A stretch of 31,248 nucleotides of DNA. Source: a virus (Duplodnaviria > Caudoviricetes). The translations under genes and the position numbers were made by a program. This document shows positions 1,148 through 8,387 of the stretch, one piece after another. Under the pieces are notes generated by a model. It was given only the letters and a program-made list of their open reading frames with translations, did no database searches and was not told the origin of the DNA. The DNA lies in IMG/VR virus record IMGVR_UViG_3300025635_000110, positions 1 through 31,248 of that record. One strand, 5' to 3'. Every line of letters begins with the position of its first letter. The first letter of the stretch is position 1.

Positions 1148-2443
1148 TTAGGTATCAATCGGAGGTTCAGAGAACCGGCAGAATTGCCCATCGTACCAGA
1201 GTTTTACGATGCCGCACTCACCGTCTCGTTGCTTTGCGATGACGATTGAAGCTTCGCCTTTCGGCTCTTTCCGGTCTCGGTCTAGGAGCATCACAAGATC
1301 AGCGTCTCGTTCGATCTGACCAGAGTCTGCAAGATCAGTCAGCCGAGGTTGTCGGCCTTTGTCTTTCTCGTTCTCTCGGTTCAACTGTGCAAGTGACAGC
1401 AAAGCCACTCCGGTCTGTACCGCAATGTCTTTGAGCTTACCGCTGACCTCTGCGACCTCGTAGGTGCGCTTCTCGGACTTCTCTGCTGCTTTGACCTTCT
1501 GGAGGTAGTCGATAATGACGAGTCGCACTTTGTGCTTACGAACCGCTCGACGGATGTTGGCGGTGATGCTGGCGATGCTTTGAGAGCTTGAGCCATCCAA
1601 GAACCAGAGCGGACTAGACGCCAGCTTCCCAGACGCTTGAGTCATGGAGCGCATATCACCTTCGGAAAGGTTGCCGCTCTTGAGGTTCTGCATCGGGACT
1701 TTGCCTAACGAAGCGACGGATCTTCTGAAGATGGCCTCCTTCGACATCTCAAGCGAGATGAACAGCGTCGGAGTCTTGGCTTTGACTGCTGCGGCTTCTG
1801 CGATGGCGATTGCGATTGCCGTTTTGCCTATAGATGGACGAGCCGCAATTATCGCAAGCTCACCATGCTGGAGACCATCGGTCTTGTCGTCGAGCCAATG
1901 GAAGCCGGTGGTTACTCCCGAGAGCGTACCTTTTCGACTGAACCGCTCTTGCATTGAGTCGATGAACGACCCCGCGACCTGTTTTGAGGTTGAGAGCGTC
2001 TCCTTAGAGACCTCAATGCTGAGTCCTGCTTCGGCATTAGAGACGATTTGATCTGTTGGGAGTGTCAGGACAGCGGACTCGCGTATAAGTCGGTCTCCTG
2101 CGAGCCGTAGCTGGCGACGGTGAGCGGCTTCTGCAATGCCTTTGACGTAGTATGGAAGGTTTGCCGGTGATGGGCAGACTTCCATTGCGCGGTTCCAGTC
2201 CTCGAAAGGGATGGGTTGGTTGCCGTTCAGCTTCTTCCACTCCTTCCCAAGTTCAGGGAGGCTAGGAGCGCGGTTCTGTTGGGTCATCGACTTAATGACC
2301 TCGTAAGTGTCTTTCAGCGATTGGGTTTCGATCCAATCAACTCGGACTTCAGCGAGCGCATCAGCGCAAGTGTCCAGCGTACCAGTCAGACAAGCCCCAA
2401 TCAGACCAAACTCGTCGTCTTCAGCGAAGTAAGGATTGCTCAC
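1148..2443 (-). CDS. dnaB: Replicative DNA helicase, DnaB family
   Basis: Walker A AARPSIGKT, FISLEMS, Walker B LVIIDYLQ, LAQLNR, DLADSGQIERDAD, IAKQRDG. Confidence 0.95.
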   Translation of the reverse strand: MSNPYFAEDDEFGLIGACLTGTLDTCADALAEVRVDWIETQSLKDTYEVIKSMTQQNRAPSLPELGKEWKKLNGNQPIPFEDWNRAMEVCPSPANLPYYVKGIAEAAHRRQLRLAGDRLIRESAVLTLPTDQIVSNAEAGLSIEVSKETLSTSKQVAGSFIDSMQERFSRKGTLSGVTTGFHWLDDKTDGLQHGELAIIAARPSIGKTAIAIAIAEAAAVKAKTPTLFISLEMSKEAIFRRSVASLGKVPMQNLKSGNLSEGDMRSMTQASGKLASSPLWFLDGSSSQSIASITANIRRAVRKHKVRLVIIDYLQKVKAAEKSEKRTYEVAEVSGKLKDIAVQTGVALLSLAQLNRENEKDKGRQPRLTDLADSGQIERDADLVMLLDRDRKEPKGEASIVIAKQRDGECGIVKLWYDGQFCRFSEPPIDT

Positions 2444-3189
2444 AGGCTGTCCCTCCAGTCGATTTCCTTAGTGCGTTTCGATTGCGGTTGAAGCTCAAGC
2501 TGGCTTTTGGGTCTGAATAGACCTTTCCACCCAGAAGCGATTGAGTGCTGAACGATCACCGGAAACTCTTGTGGTGAGAACTCGTTCGCCCATTTGGTCA
2601 GCGATGCGCTAAGTCCCGTCTTCTTGTATCCCTGACGCATCTCGGACTTGTACTGAAGCCAAAGGAGGGCTGCCTGATGGCAGTCCTCATTCTTCAGCGA
2701 GTCTGGCATCTCAAGACCGAAAGCAACCTCCCATGGCGACTTCGGAGCCTTCGTCTTCTCTGTCTTTTCTATCTTATCTATCTTCTCTTCTCTATCGGTT
2801 ACCCCATGGGTTACCCGTGGGATAACCTGATCGTCTTCTGGGTTAACCCGTGGGTTATCTCTGGGTTTCTTTGGCCTCCCTCCCTTTCCACCGTTTGACC
2901 AAGAAGCAATTAGGCTTGCGTTAACCTCGTCCCATTGGTGAACGACCAGACATCCTTCTTCTACCCTGCAATATGTCTGGAGCATGGCGTTCCAGAATGT
3001 GCTGGCGTCACCGTTCCACTTGCAGACAGCGGATAAGATCTCGGCGTTCCATTCTGGGAATCGGCTCGTCTTTCGGGTCTGGCAATGTGACCAAAGCCTT
3101 AGAACGTGGATTGGTGCTGTTTCGGTGTTGAGAAGACGGGATAGAAGTCGCGTCTTCCAATGGTCTAAGAAGTCAGTTTCTACGATCAT
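2440..3189 (-). CDS. Phage replication initiator / replisome organiser (lambda O-like architecture)
   Basis: Overlaps the dnaB start; N-terminal helical domain, NGGKGGRPKK motif, low-complexity middle encoded by iteron-like repeats, C-terminal IVQHSIASGWKGLF. Confidence 0.75.
   Translation of the reverse strand: MIVETDFLDHWKTRLLSRLLNTETAPIHVLRLWSHCQTRKTSRFPEWNAEILSAVCKWNGDASTFWNAMLQTYCRVEEGCLVVHQWDEVNASLIASWSNGGKGGRPKKPRDNPRVNPEDDQVIPRVTHGVTDREEKIDKIEKTEKTKAPKSPWEVAFGLEMPDSLKNEDCHQAALLWLQYKSEMRQGYKKTGLSASLTKWANEFSPQEFPVIVQHSIASGWKGLFRPKSQLELQPQSKRTKEIDWRDSL
2750..2868. repeat. Putative replication origin: iterons plus a strand-skewed tract inside the initiator gene
   Basis: TGGGTTA(A)CCC-like units starting near 2796, 2807, 2818, 2839, 2851 and 2862 (mostly 11-12 bp spacing), next to a pyrimidine-rich tract at ~2750-2794, as in lambda ori. 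Confidence 0.7.
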
Positions 3190-3283
3190 GTATCAAACAG
3201 AAACCCCACTCAGTCCGTGGTGAGAACTCGCGCACAAGCAACGCGACGTACACGGAAAGAGTGGGGATAAATTGGTTGAACAT
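3173..3283 (-). CDS. Possible 36-aa leader peptide (MFNQFIPTLS...) crossing the terminator hairpin
   Basis: ATG at 3283 preceded by A/C-rich ACCATAACACAAGCC; ORF overlaps the initiator start. Confidence 0.35.
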   Translation of the reverse strand: MFNQFIPTLSVYVALLVREFSPRTEWGFCLIHDRRN

Positions 3284-3333
3284 GGCTTGTGTTATGGTTA
3301 GCCAACGCTTGCTTCTCACGGCTCGCGCTGACT
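3195..3333 (-). ncRNA. Structured cis-regulatory RNA / attenuator upstream of the initiator
   Basis: Hairpin 1 AGUCAGCGC/GCGUUGGCU with GUGAGAA in its loop; hairpin 2 CCCCACUC/GAGUGGGG + UCCGUG/CACGGA + UCGCG/CGCGA with a UUCUCAC bulge, followed by UUUCUGUUU. Confidence 0.6.
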
Positions 3334-3341
3334 CCTTACTG

Positions 3342-3524
3342 CTAACTCGGCTTCGGTCCTTCGTCCAGACAAAACTTGTCGTAGAACTCGGCTTTCGGTC
3401 GAACGTAGAAGTAACCCTCACGCTCGTAGACGACGCACAGCCGCTTGGTCTCACCGATGCGGAGTTGGGCTTCGGAGATGAACTCCACGATGACGTTTTG
3501 GTTGGATTTAGAGCGGAATCTCAT
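3342..3524 (-). CDS. Small hypothetical protein, possibly DUF1653-like
   Basis: 60 aa; VVYEREGYFYVRPKAEFYDKF resembles the DUF1653 C-terminal pattern; ATGA-coupled to the upstream gene. Confidence 0.55.
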   Translation of the reverse strand: MRFRSKSNQNVIVEFISEAQLRIGETKRLCVVYEREGYFYVRPKAEFYDKFCLDEGPKPS

Positions 3525-3781
3525 TGTTTTTCTCGGTAGTGTACTGTTGGGAATGTTCCACGGTTGCGAGTAATCACTCTGAACTTTTTAGACTCCATCG
3601 TTCCAATTCGGACTGAGCGGGAGAGCAGAATTCCTGCTGCATTCGGAGTCATTTTCCAAATCTCGGCCCATTGATTGGCTGTATGCCAGCCTCTGGGGAC
3701 ATCTTCGGGTTGATTGGCTAGTGCTGATCGAAGCCGCTTCAAAAGCTCGGCAGGTGCCAATTCTGTTCGTTCTGAGGCCAT
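3521..3781 (-). CDS. Winged-helix-like DNA-binding protein
   Basis: Likely start MASERTEL at 3781; GWHTANQWAEIWKMTPNAAGILLSRSVRIG is HTH-like. Confidence 0.55.
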   Translation of the reverse strand: MASERTELAPAELLKRLRSALANQPEDVPRGWHTANQWAEIWKMTPNAAGILLSRSVRIGTMESKKFRVITRNRGTFPTVHYREKQ

Positions 3782-4488
3782 TGGTGGAGGTAGAGTTGCG
3801 CTGAGTTGTCGGTGTATTCCCCAAACACGATCCCATGGGACCATGCTAGGGTTGATCGTCGTTTTCCTGCATAATCCATTGCAGGAATGTCTGCCAAAGT
3901 TCCGACACAAAAGCCCATCGGATTTCCCATTGTTCGACCAGTCGCTTGACCTGCTCGGTGAGCATGAGCCACGACGCAGTTGCCAAAAGTCTCAGCGGAG
4001 TCACGCAAGAAGTTCTCACTGAATAGGACTCCATGTCCCCATCGAAATCCGCCAAGCTGGAAAAACGATCTGTCGAGACAGTCATTGTGTTTGATGAATG
4101 TGTGACAGTGTTTCTCAATAGGTTTTAGCATTCGTTCCCACACAGCCTCAGCGAATCCACGGACAACAGCGTTGTGATGGTTCAGATACTTCTTGGCTCG
4201 CTCGTCATGGTTCCCAATGGTGAACACCGTTGGTCTTAGTTCGTCTAGGAACTTGGCTCCCTCTTGGATGTCGTCGAGATAGTCATCGGCTTGGTCCGAG
4301 TCTTGTGGGTCTCGGAGTGACCCGCTGCGTAATGATGCAAGATCGTAGGCGTCTCCGAGGTGGATTACTTCGTCTGGTTTGAATCTCTCTCGGAAGAGCA
4401 AGACCGCAGCGAGTGCATCTTGATTGGCTCGGTTCCCATGGCTGCAACCAACCGCCATGACTCGGCGGCGGTGCTGTGTGATGTTCAC
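3739..4488 (-). CDS. Calcineurin-like metallophosphoesterase
   Basis: Motifs GCSHG, LGDAYD, GNHD, GHG and AHAHR; the first motif has Cys in place of the usual Asp. Confidence 0.85.
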   Translation of the reverse strand: MNITQHRRRVMAVGCSHGNRANQDALAAVLLFRERFKPDEVIHLGDAYDLASLRSGSLRDPQDSDQADDYLDDIQEGAKFLDELRPTVFTIGNHDERAKKYLNHHNAVVRGFAEAVWERMLKPIEKHCHTFIKHNDCLDRSFFQLGGFRWGHGVLFSENFLRDSAETFGNCVVAHAHRAGQATGRTMGNPMGFCVGTLADIPAMDYAGKRRSTLAWSHGIVFGEYTDNSAQLYLHQWPQNEQNWHLPSF

Positions 4489-4545
4489 AATGGTTAATAA
4501 GCATAAGCGTAACGCTCAATCAAGACACACTCGCTCGGTGTATTG

Positions 4546-4824
4546 TTAATCTTTCCGCAACTTACCTTTACGGACCATCATTACCCAGTAAGGCGAGACT
4601 CCGTACTTCTTGGATAATTCTCGGTTGGTGAATGTCGCGTGGGACGACCTGACAGCCTCCACGATTGACTGGTCGATTCTTCGTCCAACTGGACGCCCAC
4701 GCTGACGCTTTTTTGGCTTAGTCGGTCTGGATGTAAGAACGGGTTGCGTTTGGACGGTCTTGTGGACTCCCAAGAGTCTAGCGATAGCGTCTTTAGTGAG
4801 ACCGAGTGTTTTTAGTATGCTCAT
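4546..4824 (-). CDS. HTH protein with an AT-hook-like RGRP motif
   Basis: LTKDAIARLLGVHK, RQRGRP, TNRELSKKYGVSPYWV. Confidence 0.6.
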   Translation of the reverse strand: MSILKTLGLTKDAIARLLGVHKTVQTQPVLTSRPTKPKKRQRGRPVGRRIDQSIVEAVRSSHATFTNRELSKKYGVSPYWVMMVRKGKLRKD

Positions 4825-4978
4825 TGAATATTTCTGGGTGGAATGTTAGTACGTGGAAATCTAGGACGTGTCGGAGATATGCTCCCCAAGACTTAAAACC
4901 GAGTTTCTCTGCTTCTTTCTGCAATAGTGTTAGAGTCTTATAATCTAGCTCAAATGATGTATTAACTTTCTGGTTCAT
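4793..4978 (-). CDS. Ribbon-helix-helix-like small protein
   Basis: NTSFELD followed by LQKEAEKLGFKSWGAYLRHVLD fits an RHH pattern. Confidence 0.6.
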   Translation of the reverse strand: MNQKVNTSFELDYKTLTLLQKEAEKLGFKSWGAYLRHVLDFHVLTFHPEIFNEHTKNTRSH

Positions 4979-5168
4979 AATTCACGATGAAATCAAAGTT
5001 GGTTTGCCATGAATCGTTTAATTGGTTGTAGCTGTTATTCTTGATCTTCCACGTTCGCGGGTCACGGCTCGACTTGGTGTGTCGGCACCTGATGCGAACG
5101 TCGATGGTTTGGAGTGCGGAGTTTCGGAGGTGGTGATGGTGCTGGAGTTCGTGGAGCAGGAGGGTCAT
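4962..5168 (-). CDS. Hypothetical protein
   Basis: 68 aa; ATGA-coupled to the upstream gene. Confidence 0.55.
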   Translation of the reverse strand: MTLLLHELQHHHHLRNSALQTIDVRIRCRHTKSSRDPRTWKIKNNSYNQLNDSWQTNFDFIVNYEPES

Positions 5169-5383
5169 ACCTTTTCGGTGAGTGATCTGATGTACCTGTT
5201 CCGCTCTTTCGGTTTTACGTTGATGAGGTATTCAATGGCCATGCAGGCATTGATGCTTGCGGTATGTTCCCAGTTCTCCTTGTTGTCGTAGTACTCATGC
5301 CACCGCTCGCTGGGTGCTACGATGACTTGTCCGGTCTTCCGGTGCTTGAACACGAATGCGGCAGGGCCGATGGGGACGTTCAC
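5165..5383 (-). CDS. Hypothetical protein (mini-gene array)
   Basis: 72 aa; GTG start inside the junction at 5380-5395. Confidence 0.65.
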   Translation of the reverse strand: MNVPIGPAAFVFKHRKTGQVIVAPSERWHEYYDNKENWEHTASINACMAIEYLINVKPKERNRYIRSLTEKV

Positions 5384-5586
5384 GGCTTCACATCCTTCTC
5401 ATTCCACAGCAGCAGATCGGCGCGGAGAGCGTCGTTCTCACGCTCTAGTTGGGTGATGCGCATATGCTGCTCCGCTAATCGCTCCCCTGCTTCAGCGATT
5501 GCTGAGTTAGCGGCGCCGTCCTCGGATTGAATATCCTGAGACAATATCCGCATCGCTGCGATTAGTGTTTCGGTTGAGGTTCTCAC
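5380..5586 (-). CDS. Coiled-coil hypothetical protein ending DVKP
   Basis: 68 aa; GTGA overlaps at both ends. Confidence 0.7.
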   Translation of the reverse strand: MRTSTETLIAAMRILSQDIQSEDGAANSAIAEAGERLAEQHMRITQLERENDALRADLLLWNEKDVKP

Positions 5587-5783
5587 GGCTTAGCCTCCTC
5601 GGATTTGTACTGCTGAATCCAGTTGTCGATGGCATTTAGAACAGCGGCATGGCTGTTCTCTACGCTCTCCAACCGCTTGATGCGTTGTTGTGCGGCGTTG
5701 AGTTCTCGTTCAAGTTTGTACGCCTCCTCCTTCAGGTATGCGTGATTCCAGTGAACTTGATCAACTCTCGGTGTTTCGCTCAC
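5583..5783 (-). CDS. Coiled-coil hypothetical protein ending EAKP
   Basis: Start re-called to GTG 5783 (MSETPRVD...), 66 aa; contains KLERELNAAQQRIKRLE. Confidence 0.7.
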   Translation of the reverse strand: MSETPRVDQVHWNHAYLKEEAYKLERELNAAQQRIKRLESVENSHAAVLNAIDNWIQQYKSEEAKP

Positions 5784-6148
5784 GGCTTGGCCTCCCCCTT
5801 GTAGACAGCTTCTCCTTTTCTCAGATAACCAATCTCGCTTCCGAACCACTCGCGTTCAGGAAGGATTCCGCTGTGCTGCTCAAGCACTTCAAGCGACTCA
5901 ATCCATGACTCCAGCCGCTTGATGCGCTCACGCGCTTCATCCCGCTGCTTCGTAAGCATTTGAATCTCACGAATCCGACACAAATCGCTTTGCCCTACCC
6001 TTCTCCATTGATCGTCATCCCACTCAACGTCGATCTGTGTTCTGCACTCGTAAGTGGCAAACCCGCCGTCGTCTGACCTGAGTGGGTTTCCGCAATGAAC
6101 GCGAACAGGCGACTCGCAGAACGGGCATTTGTCTGGTACGGTTTTCAC
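5780..6148 (-). CDS. Zn-finger (CPFC) plus coiled-coil protein ending EAKP
   Basis: Start re-called to GTG 6148 (MKTVPDKCPFCES...), 122 aa; contains ERIKRLE. Confidence 0.7.
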   Translation of the reverse strand: MKTVPDKCPFCESPVRVHCGNPLRSDDGGFATYECRTQIDVEWDDDQWRRVGQSDLCRIREIQMLTKQRDEARERIKRLESWIESLEVLEQHSGILPEREWFGSEIGYLRKGEAVYKGEAKP

Positions 6149-6339
6149 GGCTTGGCCTCCACCTTCACCATCGGAACAAAATCCAGACTGTTGCTCTCGT
6201 CGATTGCGATGCCCCAGTTGTTCCTTCGGCAGCACAGCTCGGTTGCGTTGTAGACCTCCATCATCGTCTTCTCGGGAAGGTAGATGGACAGCAGTCCTTT
6301 GAACGTGAGACGTACAGTCTCTGACTTGTTGTCGCTCAT
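6145..6339 (-). CDS. Hypothetical protein ending EAKP
   Basis: 64 aa; GGAGG then ATGA-coupled start. Confidence 0.7.
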   Translation of the reverse strand: MSDNKSETVRLTFKGLLSIYLPEKTMMEVYNATELCCRRNNWGIAIDESNSLDFVPMVKVEAKP

Positions 6340-6473
6340 TTCGCCTCCTTCTTATCCATCCACTCACGGATGATGCGGTCAATTTGGTGGTTCATTTTGA
6401 GTCCCTCTCGTTTGCACAGTTCTTTCAATCGAACGTGCGTTGTCTCAGTGATGAATACGGTCTTTGATTTCAC
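6336..6473 (-). CDS. Ribbon-helix-helix DNA-binding protein
   Basis: Start re-called to GTG 6473: MKSKTVFITETTHVRLKELCKREGLKMNHQIDRIIREW, a typical RHH pattern; 45 aa. Confidence 0.7.
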   Translation of the reverse strand: MKSKTVFITETTHVRLKELCKREGLKMNHQIDRIIREWMDKKEAK

Positions 6474-6796
6474 AGGTGCTTTTTGACTTTGTTCCAATAG
6501 CTGACGGTCGCTGACTTGCGATTGCCAGTCGGGCCACCGTTCCAAATTCTAGCCGCTTCTTCATTGGTCTTTCCCGCAGCGTATCGGCTCAGATAGATCT
6601 CGCAAACTCGACGAGCCGCAACGCGATTGGTCATTTGCTGGTGGGTGTAGCTGGTGCCAGCGATCCGGTTAACATCGACCACAACCGCTTTGTGGATCTG
6701 CAACGCGCCAATGGCTCGCCCACCATCTCCAATTGCCATATCGTTTCCGTTGGACTCCACAGTGATCAGAGCCGCAATGAGTGGCCCCAGATTCAT
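6470..6796 (-). CDS. Lysozyme-superfamily muramidase/transglycosylase, i-type (destabilase)-like
   Basis: ITVES (catalytic Glu), GALQI, ARIWNGGPTG...YWNKV. Confidence 0.8.
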   Translation of the reverse strand: MNLGPLIAALITVESNGNDMAIGDGGRAIGALQIHKAVVVDVNRIAGTSYTHQQMTNRVAARRVCEIYLSRYAAGKTNEEAARIWNGGPTGNRKSATVSYWNKVKKHL

Positions 6797-6987
6797 CGGA
6801 GACCTTTCAGCCAGACGGCGGCTTTGTGTTGGATGATCTCTTCGGCTTCAAGCAACCGTCCGCTCTCGTCGGAGATCCCGATTAGCTCAATCGTATGGTT
6901 CCAGACGTCTCTAGCGCGGAGAGCTTCTTCGATGCTGCGGTGAATGCTTAGGACTTTGTTGTCCTTATTTCTGCAATGGTACTTCAT
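6793..6987 (-). CDS. Hypothetical protein
   Basis: 64 aa; preceded by the repeated leader module. Confidence 0.65.
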   Translation of the reverse strand: MKYHCRNKDNKVLSIHRSIEEALRARDVWNHTIELIGISDESGRLLEAEEIIQHKAAVWLKGLR

Positions 6988-7040
6988 GGTATTTGATGGG
7001 TGTTAATGGTTTTGAGCGTTTAACGTATGCGCTCCCCACG
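6983..7040 (-). repeat. Repeated hairpin leader module, copy A
   Basis: TTCATGGTATTTGATGG (6983-6999) is identical to 7507-7523; upstream GAGCG/CGCTC stem. Confidence 0.75.
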
Positions 7041-7047
7041 ATTTGAA

Positions 7048-7296
7048 CTACGACAACCAATGCTTCTCTTGAATTGGTTGGTCTTGATCCAGTTGGAAAT
7101 GATGGGCAGATCCACCGTCAATGAAGCTGAACTTCAACGATGGGCCACCATACCACCCCATAATCGGGCAGAAGGTGTTGGTGGTGCGAGTGATTCCAGA
7201 AACAATCTGGGCGCTTGATTCAAGCGGTCCACGTTGGACCCTGACGAGATCTCCAACCTCAATGTCAGAAAACGATTCGGCGTCTTTGAATTGCAT
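7048..7296 (-). CDS. Hypothetical protein
   Basis: 82 aa; IEVGDLVRV is SH3/KOW-like. Confidence 0.55.
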   Translation of the reverse strand: MQFKDAESFSDIEVGDLVRVQRGPLESSAQIVSGITRTTNTFCPIMGWYGGPSLKFSFIDGGSAHHFQLDQDQPIQEKHWLS

Positions 7297-7307
7297 ATGA
7301 TCTTGGA

Positions 7308-7511
7308 TTACTTGTTGCGGCTGGCGTTGAGCATCTTCGCTTTGTAAGAAGCTTCGCTGAGGCTGTTATTCCCTGCAATGTAATCGCAGACAAACCCAAG
7401 CTTCTCTTGATCCGTCAGATTTTCGGATCGAACGATGCGGAGCATCCAAAACTGACCAACTTTGCACAGCTTGTTGAGGTGAGGCTGAATGACGGATTCG
7501 ACAGTGTTCAT
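7308..7511 (-). CDS. Hypothetical protein
   Basis: 67 aa; preceded by the repeated leader module. Confidence 0.65.
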   Translation of the reverse strand: MNTVESVIQPHLNKLCKVGQFWMLRIVRSENLTDQEKLGFVCDYIAGNNSLSEASYKAKMLNASRNK

Positions 7512-7566
7512 GGTATTTGATGGTATGAGTTATGGTTTGTTGCGCGTTGGAGAGTCGCGCCCCTCG
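7507..7566 (-). repeat. Repeated hairpin leader module, copy B
   Basis: 17-bp identity with copy A; upstream GCGCG/CGCGC stem. Confidence 0.75.
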
Positions 7567-7573
7567 TTAAATT

Positions 7574-7762
7574 CTACTGCCAAACAGGACCGGCAGACAT
7601 GATGAACGGGTTGGATGCGGACTTTGCAGCATCTTCAAAGCTCCATCCGCTTTTGGAAAGAATGTGGGAAGCGATTTCGGCTGCTTGAAACTTCGTCACC
7701 TTAGCCTTCGGGAAGCTGTAGACGATTTCGGTGATTTTGTTGAGTTTGGTTTGCTTGGTCAT
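7574..7762 (-). CDS. Hypothetical protein, first gene of the accessory unit
   Basis: Start re-called to ATG 7762 (MTKQTK...), 62 aa, downstream of the promoter/operator. Confidence 0.6.
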   Translation of the reverse strand: MTKQTKLNKITEIVYSFPKAKVTKFQAAEIASHILSKSGWSFEDAAKSASNPFIMSAGPVWQ

Positions 7763-7807
7763 CGTATTCGTTCCGTTTCTCGCGGCTTGATTGCCGTCGA
7801 TGGAGAG

Positions 7808-7872
7808 AGTTAAACCCAACGCTCGGTTCTCTGCAACAGAAAACTGCAACTTTTTTCACTTCTTCAAAAAAA
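7808..7872 (-). promoter_or_regulatory. Putative promoter containing operator copy 2
   Basis: TTGCAG (7836-7831), a weak -10 region (TTAACT), upstream A/T tracts; AACCCAACGCTCGGTT at 7813-7828 fills the spacer. Confidence 0.55.
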
Positions 7873-7964
7873 GCCCGTAAACATTGGGGAAAATGCGGTG
7901 TTTCTTGAGGTGAACCCAACCCGTCATGGGATCTCCCCATGCACCATGCCGCATTTTCTGAAGG

Positions 7965-8387
7965 TCAGTCAGCGTTGATTCTCACGCTGCATCCAGAGGC
8001 ATACAAAGCGTAAGTCTTCGTCGCTGTGATCTGGTAGACCTGCGAGTCGTCGAGCCAGACCCGTTGAGTGTCGGTGATCGCATCGGTCACCGCTTTGATG
8101 AGGTTGTCCAAGTCTGGCTTCTTTGGGTGCCAGACCGGAGATTTCGGCTTAGGCCATCCGTGCTTGTCCAGATGCGCTTTTGGTCTCGGTAGGAAGAAGT
8201 CTAGCTGCAACCTAATCGGACCCGTCATAAGCGATTCTGGAGCGTTTGCGGTGGCTTCCTGACGCACCGCTTGCTTCCACGCATCGGCTGAGTCTGGAGT
8301 GTATACGCCAGCATGATTCCCACGCCTAAAGGCTTTGACTCGCGGTTGAGCCTTCGGAATTCCGCTGACATGGAAGTCAAGATGCAT
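7965..8387 (-). CDS. rusA: Holliday junction resolvase, RusA family
   Basis: KPDLDNLIKAVTDAI...DDSQV signature. Confidence 0.92.
   Translation of the reverse strand: MHLDFHVSGIPKAQPRVKAFRRGNHAGVYTPDSADAWKQAVRQEATANAPESLMTGPIRLQLDFFLPRPKAHLDKHGWPKPKSPVWHPKKPDLDNLIKAVTDAITDTQRVWLDDSQVYQITATKTYALYASGCSVRINAD

Follow-up and report, generated by a model that had tools for sequence, protein, structure and literature searches.

A C4/CI-like leader with two covarying long-range pairings in front of phage replication genes, and its possible action as a translation-controlled attenuator

In phage P4 it is the CI RNA, and not a protein, that prevents expression of the replication genes, by premature termination of the operon through seqA and seqC (PMC4825925), and seqA and CI have been equated with IsrK and C4 (PMC3632133). 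The c4 RNA has been listed in Proteobacteria and phages (PMC2864571), and C4 carries a GG(W) RNase P site at the start of its stem (PMC5320573). As far as the consulted portions of these sources go, C4/CI RNAs are features of temperate phages and their Proteobacterial hosts, and their action depends on a second target downstream. A related layout is IsrK-orf45-anrP of Gifsy-1, in which pairing in cis silences a short coupled open reading frame (ORF) and IsrK activates it in trans (PMC4825925, in the portion consulted). Here we describe a leader of this general kind on the minus strand of the virus record IMGVR_UViG_3300025635_000110, directly before genes for a replication initiator and a DnaB-like helicase. 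The window that we analysed is the complete record, 31,248 nucleotides (nt) long and rated 100% complete. An initial annotation had proposed an RNA switch analogous to P1 C4 and P4 CI at this site. That analogy holds for the pair of 7-mers shared with P4 and for the order of the two antisense boxes; the second of the pairings proposed with it had been assigned to the wrong partner.

The leader folds on the minus strand into the two hairpins that had been predicted. Hairpin 1 (3300..3333), recognized by its fold and by conserved stems, is a target hairpin of the a1/seqA type with an 8-nt loop; its folding energy is -16.4 kcal/mol, with a z-score of -2.66, compared with a z-score of -1.20 for the plus strand. 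The loop holds box a, GUGAGAA (3313..3319), which covaries with its partner and is the same 7-mer as in P4 seqA. Box b, CACAAGC (3285..3291), also identified by covariation, lies 21 nt beyond box a and ends 1 nt before the AUG of a 36-codon leader ORF (3173..3283), within the ribosome footprint. This ORF crosses hairpin 2 and overlaps the start of the initiator gene (3189). Hairpin 2 (3204..3266) resembles the C4/CI antisense hairpin, with a main stem, an inner stem and a G-C-rich basal stem of 8 bp and no P2 branch; the three stems are stacked, and none of 200 shuffled sequences was equally stable (z -5.46). Its terminal loop contains box b', GCUUGUG (3233..3239), complementary to b, and 6 nt further on a bulge on the 3' side contains box a', UUCUCAC (3220..3226), complementary to a; each has a predicted unpaired probability of 0.85. 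The hairpin-2 stem opens with a C-run and closes, 14 nt before the initiator AUG, with a G-run. A U-rich, terminator-like tail (3195..3203) follows and overlaps the initiator translation start region. Both the tail and the 36-codon ORF lie where the initial annotation had placed them. Folded as a whole on the minus strand, the leader has a z-score of -3.96.

Both long-range pairings covary among relatives of the window. In an alignment (A2) of 59 non-redundant sequences, taken from 83 distinct full-length elements, a and a' are paired in 413 of 413 cells with 56 double-sided changes, a level reached in 0 of 500 shuffles; not one of these cells contains a G-U pair, whereas the stems accept many. 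Boxes b and b' are 98.1% paired in the same alignment, with 75 double-sided changes and again 0 of 500 shuffles as high. In the consensus fold of these sequences, compensatory changes occur in each of the three hairpin-2 stems and also in hairpin 1, whose outer and inner stems are kept with G-U changes and one double-sided column. The stems and the GUGAGAA/UUCUCAC pair on which the initial annotation had rested are thus conserved and covary in related phages. A second cross-pairing that it had drawn, AAGCAA with UUGCUU, did not survive: it has 0 compensatory changes and is 90.7% paired, compared with 91.0% in shuffles, 423 of 500 of which scored as high. The real partner of the hairpin-2 tip is CACAAGC (3285-3291), that is, box b, which lies over the ribosome landing site of the leader ORF and so supplies the mechanistic step that the first reading had missed.

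When we extended the comparison to 107 distinct elements, a/a' was Watson-Crick at 7 of 7 positions in 102 and at 5 of 7 in the other 5, and b/b' matched at 6 of 6 positions in 98 and at 4-5 of 6 in 9. These elements comprise 5 a alleles and 11 b alleles in 20 a x b combinations. Because so many distinct alleles are matched, the pairings do not reflect shared descent of one single pair. A scan of metagenomes with a pattern that left b, b' and a' free gave 112 matches, 32 of them with a' (the 80 without it were left aside); among the 26 distinct elements in this set, 25 have a perfect b/b' match and the remaining one pairs with one G-U.

Loci chosen by dnaB alone, as an unbiased check, contain the element at full length in 78 of 80 cases, and both misses have less than 120 nt upstream of dnaB; loci picked by the initiator carry the leader in 20 of 25 cases (49-100% identity) and are without it in 5 (39-46%), and the distant initiator homologues L021-L025 gave no match to the leader model. 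A pattern scan contributed 119 further matches. Exactly one copy is present in 31 of 34 whole records, the other three belonging to a distant clade described below. Scans of bacterial genomes yielded 2 matches with a strict pattern, both of which we attribute to chance, and 120 loci with a loose one; 100 of these loci were scanned with model R1 and gave one partial match (E 0.007) that does not include hairpin 2. Matches from a 14-mer scan of viral contigs were mostly chance as well. No cultured phage sharing the element was found, the best DnaB match in cultured phages being 33%.

The leader ORF is conserved as an open frame and not as a peptide. In 106 of 107 elements no stop codon interrupts it before the basal stem ends, and its stop lies between -6 and +14 nt from the next AUG in 85 of 107. 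At a stem pair with a 5' U, copies in which the 3' triplet is in frame use the U-G wobble (UGG) in 9 of 10 cases, and copies in which it is out of frame use U-A (UGA) in 12 of 12, as one would expect under selection against a stop codon within the hairpin. The peptide itself varies in frame, sequence and length (24-49 codons), and one copy is fused in frame with the next gene. Short ORFs at C4/CI loci can be active, icd being annotated as a cell-division inhibitor, and one might suppose either that this peptide has a function of its own, like Icd or Kil, or that the locus is a mere terminator with incidental cross-matches. We consider this extremely unlikely, given the variation of the peptide on the one hand and, on the other, cross-matches that covary across 16 close-clade alleles.

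The 9 nt after the basal stem contain on average 6.6 U in the 107 relatives, compared with 2.0 at the same offset before 32 other genes of the window. By sequence, the locus has the G-C-rich stem, the U tract and the leader ORF open across both that mark an attenuator. As judged by N-terminal motif, the first gene after the leader in the 107 elements is a DUF1376-like initiator in 41, an initiator of the window type in 29 and one of a third type in 1; the remaining first genes are 15 small 70-aa genes, 13 that we take to be HNH-like from a motif, with no Pfam match for that gene, and 8 cytosine methylases. There are thus six kinds of first downstream gene, and the chain of genes, where it can be followed, leads to an initiator and dnaB.

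We also asked how specific the pairs would be. Computed energies average -17.6 kcal/mol for cognate target/antisense pairs and -7.9 kcal/mol for non-cognate ones, and the cognate partner is best in 18 of 20 types; the alleles are therefore predicted to be largely orthogonal. On a quick tree of dnaB (68 rows), the a allele requires 27 changes, where the minimum is 4 and the mean for shuffled labels is 39, and identical DnaB proteins occur with different a alleles.

From sequence comparison we regard as established the two hairpins with the a/a' and b/b' pairings, the location of b next to the leader AUG, the fact that the leader is under selection to stay open through the hairpin, the U tail and the linkage to replication genes. 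The reading that we favour, in which our confidence is evenly poised, is that the element is a translation-controlled attenuator derived from C4/CI, with b'/a' pairing that is repressive in cis and also in trans. Boxes b' and a' of hairpin 2 would pair with b and a and keep ribosomes off the leader ORF. With the leader untranslated, hairpin 2 and its U tail would terminate transcription or hide the start of the initiator-dnaB genes; a ribosome moving along the leader would instead melt hairpin 2 and allow read-through and coupling to the next gene. The pairing would form in cis as b' emerges, and terminated hairpin-2 RNA, freed from its 5' part and accumulating, would also pair in trans with new transcripts. 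Initiator and helicase would thus be made in one brief early burst before a self-reinforcing shut-off set in, and an incoming phage of the same a/b type would be silenced as well.

Folding of successive prefixes of the leader predicts that b-b', including the leader AUG, is in the minimum-energy fold once b' emerges, and that a nested a-a'/b-b' fold forms once a' emerges. These predictions make a cis component likely in any model. They are also the starting point for an explanation in cis alone, which is possible, though we think it rather doubtful: a/a' and b/b' would pair within one transcript, as a double pseudoknot or a transient nested fold, and the leader would be translatable only before b' is made, giving a fixed low dose of initiator per transcript with no free RNA acting elsewhere. 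Besides the prefix folding, such a kinetic switch is consistent with the single target and single copy per genome, with the lack of an RNase P hallmark and of detected lysogeny genes, and with Gifsy-1, where the cis fold is the translationally silent state. It leaves unexplained why the upstream loop box is kept although b' alone adjoins the target, and why some 20 a x b types exist that are for the most part orthogonal, differ by jumps of several bases and show no intermediate with a wobble pair in a/a'. We favour a role in trans because a free RNA could use the upstream loop box to dock while the AUG has yet to emerge, and because the alleles are largely orthogonal and scattered over the dnaB tree. 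Folding of the leader had also suggested a basal helix between the leader AUG and the initiator AUG; this helix is unsupported, since shuffling the partners gave pairing as good as that of cognate pairs (68 of 300). Within the initiator gene, a 14-nt repeat of the a' region (2571-2584) does not track the a' allele in L003-L005, and a 13-nt complement to the 3' arm of hairpin 2 (3609-3621) has at least 11 of 13 matches in 1 of 92 elements; both are attributed to chance.

Several observations weigh against the attenuator acting in trans, or against parts of it. Cis masking alone could explain the covariation, given the predicted b-b' fold. The counts above are of related sequences and not of independent events, and the shuffles ignore kinship. 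The a alleles are more clustered on the dnaB tree than shuffled labels (27 versus 39 changes), and the phages are mosaic throughout, as the six kinds of first gene illustrate, so that shuffling of alleles need not reflect selection on immunity type. The stem of hairpin 2 begins with a C-run in place of the GG(W) RNase P start of C4, and no RNase P processing signal was seen in it. No second target was found downstream: a 6-mer of a occurs within the next 120 nt in 0 of 91 elements. The element's own b is present within 600 nt downstream in 22 of 91, which is background given a rate of 0.25 for other alleles. A consensus terminator scan, limited to loops of 3-8 nt, did not list hairpin 2, and the two RNA runs with matches (share 0.07) are contigs of relatives and cannot show RNA ends. 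Finally, in the closest tested layout, Gifsy-1 IsrK-orf45, the trans-acting RNA is the upstream one and is activating (PMC4825925, portion consulted).

This last point suggests an IsrK-like reading of the locus, in which the leader, paired in cis, is silent by default until a hairpin-1 RNA with a and b, released by processing, titrates a' and b' in trans, frees the leader start and turns the replication genes on. This is how Gifsy-1 IsrK-orf45-anrP operates, and there too a target is followed by a short ORF and then by a coupled gene (PMC4825925, as far as consulted); in our searches the a1 regions of P1 and P4 score on the isrK model (RF01394), P4 seqA scoring on the c4-a1b1 model RF03163 as well. 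We nevertheless consider it unlikely. IsrK has its own promoter and terminator, whereas hairpin 1 lies about 9 nt after an upstream stop codon and is followed by an A/C-rich spacer without a U tract, and no promoter-like site was found near it in a sigma-70 scan, whose promoter model may be unsuited to this host.

Leader-peptide and pseudoknot control of rep is known from the IncI/IncB plasmids (ColIb-P9 repY/repZ), and these offer another activating scheme: translation of the leader would open hairpin 2, a-a' pairing would then keep the initiator start accessible, and the a loop would be blocked by a plus-strand countertranscript. The order of loop, leader ORF, hairpin and replication initiator is the same. 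We judge this very unlikely, as a' is displayed unpaired and not buried in a stem, and b' targets the leader start, which would be repressive. Hairpin 1 and the promoter scan gave no sign of a countertranscript over the upstream loop either: on the plus strand the G-U pairs of hairpin 1 become A-C mismatches and its z-score is -1.2, as given above, and the one promoter-like site that the same sigma-70 scan listed in 2400-8000 (4102-4131, plus strand) lies past the element and faces away from it.

The genomic setting is that of a replication operon. The first gated gene (2440..3189, minus strand) encodes a replication initiator resembling lambda O (PHROG 9474, E 2e-8; PHROG 678, E 8e-5), and its stop is overlapped by the gene for the DnaB-like replicative helicase (1148..2443, minus strand; PHROG 19, E 8e-82). 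Upstream on the same strand is a 60-aa ORF (3342..3524) of unassigned function, with no PHROG or Pfam match. Because its stop lies about 9 nt before hairpin 1, we place the leader inside a polycistronic early transcript, and from the gene order and a gap near 7850-7960 we infer that it is located about 4 kb into an apparent early operon. The gene upstream of the leader differs between relatives. All assignable genes of the window are on the minus strand; the others are head and tail genes, a Bet-like gene, an exonuclease, RusA, an Arc-like small protein and a phosphoesterase.

Our best guess is that the host belongs to the Verrucomicrobiota. The best 80 DnaB matches in bacterial genomes are mostly from that phylum, and a contig of a Verrucomicrobia subdivision-3 metagenome-assembled genome (locus L459) has the same leader design. 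In L459 (3800-6450), which is the best clue to the host, the order a-b-AUG-b'-a'-U-tail precedes a 56-aa ORF, dnaB and the initiator, the last two in reversed order, and recombination genes lie upstream of the leader in divergent orientation.

The initial annotation had seen no CI repressor in this phage, and a survey of 34 related records, this genome included and 30 of them at least 90% complete, agrees: none has a tyrosine integrase, a serine recombinase, an S24 domain or ParA. Weak HTH_3 matches occur in 16 of the 34, 2 of them above the cut-off and none in this genome. On this evidence the phages appear to be lytic or carrier-like, although lysogeny genes that have diverged could escape detection. 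The only regulator-like protein of the window that matches a transcription-regulation family is the small Arc/ribbon-helix-helix protein at 6336-6545 (PHROG 3180), which also has weak matches to Pfam RepB-RCR_reg and ParG.

We note some further repeated features of these genomes. Two early-gene leaders of the window (6983-7035 and 7507-7565, minus strand; family D2) consist of a small hairpin, an A/C-rich spacer and an identical 17-nt stretch over the start codon, with a weaker copy at 758-774; they may be cassette signals or translation-start signals. The spacer at 7520-7537 resembles the one after hairpin 1 (D14, 83%). A 21-nt repeat at the junctions of successive small early genes (5583-5603, 5780-5800 and 6145-6165, and weaker at 5377-5395; D1, D12) may mark recombination cassettes. 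Within the initiator gene, short imperfect direct and palindromic repeats (2808-2870; D17) occupy what is presumably the position of the origin iterons in lambda-type phages. In the relative L318 (2858-3074), a long inverted repeat with arms of about 26 bp some 150 nt apart lies downstream of the leader.

A distant clade with a similar leader was found through dnaB at 53% identity together with the stem pattern, at the same genomic position, and 14 of its members were aligned. Complementarity between the a loop and a' is present in all 14, with 91 of 91 cells paired and 20 double-sided changes in the 13 with aligned columns, and all 14 have a b/b' match of 5-8 nt at the leader start. The upstream part of the leader is here a pair of hairpins, which in three of these genomes is the best match to RF03163, at 16-21 bits and a per-genome E of 9e-5 to 3e-3, the gathering score being 46.7. 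The long hairpin has an extra branch in most members; L546, which lacks the branch, has the topology of the window. One allele, UUGACAC, is identical to P1 a1 at 6 of 7 positions. The models of the two clades match each other at the right place with non-significant values (E 0.1-1.2), and these reciprocal matches, together with synteny and anatomy, make common descent of the two clades likely. Models R2 and R3 did not detect the C4/CI RNAs of P1 and P4.

Loci L543-L545, L548, L549 and L550-L554 gave no match to the leader models. In L543, L544 and L549, whose DnaB is 57-66% identical to that of L458, the two-box leader is absent, and about 60 nt before the initiator there is only a plain terminator-like hairpin, with a purine-rich stretch resembling a Shine-Dalgarno sequence before the AUG. 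Other initiators, in L552 (1655-1806) and L553 (1520-1713), whose dnaB is about 40% identical, are preceded by multi-branch leaders that are promoter-proximal and carry a pyrimidine tail; short upstream/downstream complements can be seen in them by eye, and they match neither Rfam nor our models. They are possibly another C4-like family.

We found no description of the window element in the literature, in the consulted portions of PMC5737381 or in those of bioRxiv 10.64898/2026.09.22.753630, although a supplementary listing is possible (PMC5737381; PMC2864571, additional file 1). Six motif strings are absent from the supplement files of PMC10690425 that were searched, three files there being outside the search. 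In this element the recognition geometry of C4/CI, with P4's exact a box, is rebuilt as a one-target, leader-crossed, terminator-ended cassette before replication genes, in carriers that have no recognizable lysogeny genes and probably infect a different phylum than known C4/CI hosts. A broader interpretation, which we consider possible but less likely than not, is that one 140-nt cassette fuses the C4/CI antisense RNA, a terminator and a leader ORF in small, apparently non-integrating, probably Verrucomicrobiota phages, that its terminated product represses its own synthesis and gates initiator and helicase, and that a swappable two-box code of at least 20 a x b types gives RNA-only, allele-specific timing and superinfection exclusion without a repressor or an integrase. 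Should the RNA turn out to work in trans, it would time replication and exclude other phages with no protein involved; its specificity types could be read off the sequence, and interference between phages would be predictable from metagenomes. The roughly 20 natural pairs, predicted to be largely orthogonal, would also offer a set of repressors and targets in a 140-nt part. Were it to act in cis only, the element would still define an RNA family not yet catalogued, one whose long-range covariation is very clean.

In the Rfam search that had been suggested for c4, c4-a1b1 and related motifs, no relevant match to the window was obtained: nothing reached a gathering score, and nothing relevant appeared at E<=10 in 2900-3700. 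The C4 model RF01695 gave no window match at E<=10 and matched 0 of 5 records at E<=1, three distant-clade phages among them, whereas the P1 and P4 controls scored 69-75 bits; RF03163 and the isrK model RF01394 likewise gave no window match. The hallmarks of C4/CI are nevertheless present in the arrangement of the boxes, with b' in a loop, 6-7 nt of separation, a' just before the 3' strand of the main stem, and cognate a and b upstream on the same transcript and covarying with a' and b'. The three-way junction P1-P2-P3 is not, the window clade folding as one irregular hairpin.

In P4, the seqA loop GUGAGAA and CI UUCUCAC are exactly the a/a' 7-mers of the window, a' lies directly before the 3' strand of the CI main stem as it does in the window, and b' and a' are 7 nt apart (6 in the window). 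In P4, too, the target lies upstream within one transcript, an AUG follows closely on b, and the locus precedes replication genes. Features of P4 that the window lacks are a downstream third copy of each box (seqC), a three-way junction, and a terminator-like hairpin between seqA and CI. Its a and b are 9 nt apart (21 in the window), and its 46-codon ORF, which starts 7 nt after b like Gifsy-1 orf45, ends at the 5' end of CI without crossing it.

The C4 RNA of P1/P7 shares with the window the b'-a' order, the 6-nt spacing and a b box adjoining a start codon, and the 22 nt between its a2 and b2 are close to the 21 nt between a and b. It differs in that its phage is temperate and has a C1 repressor, in that it acts through a2/b2 on icd-ant, which encodes an antirepressor, and in being matured by RNase P at GGU; no antirepressor was found in the window. 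A three-way junction is common to P1 and P4, as is a terminator-like hairpin of the IsrK type that separates b1 from the RNA. The comparison draws attention to an unannotated ORF of 66 codons in P1 (L555:168-368; AF234172, 48267-48467), whose AUG overlaps b1, which crosses the IsrK-like terminator and C4, and which stops 2 nt before icd. Translation of a leader may be a general, overlooked part of C4 systems.

Gifsy-1 resembles the window in that a target-type RNA precedes a short ORF, with the complementary sequence in the 3' part of that ORF. There the short ORF is translationally coupled to the next gene, as is predicted for the leader ORF of the window. A short ORF after the target that ends at the start of the next gene is common to both; the target's own intrinsic terminator is absent from the window, and in Gifsy-1 IsrK is a promoter-proximal, terminator-ended small RNA and the downstream gene is antirepressor-like, not an initiator or helicase. 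The IncI/IncB plasmids share with the window a leader ORF through a hairpin before a replication initiator, and a long-range loop pairing; the boxes of the window differ in being displayed and not sequestered, and its second pairing covers the leader start. The reversed polarity of the hairpin-2 stem, with the C-run first, accounts both for the loss of the GG(W) RNase P start and for the creation of a terminator-type end. Without a score on the C4 model, a second target or a three-way junction, the element nonetheless appears to work like C4/CI and is probably descended from it.

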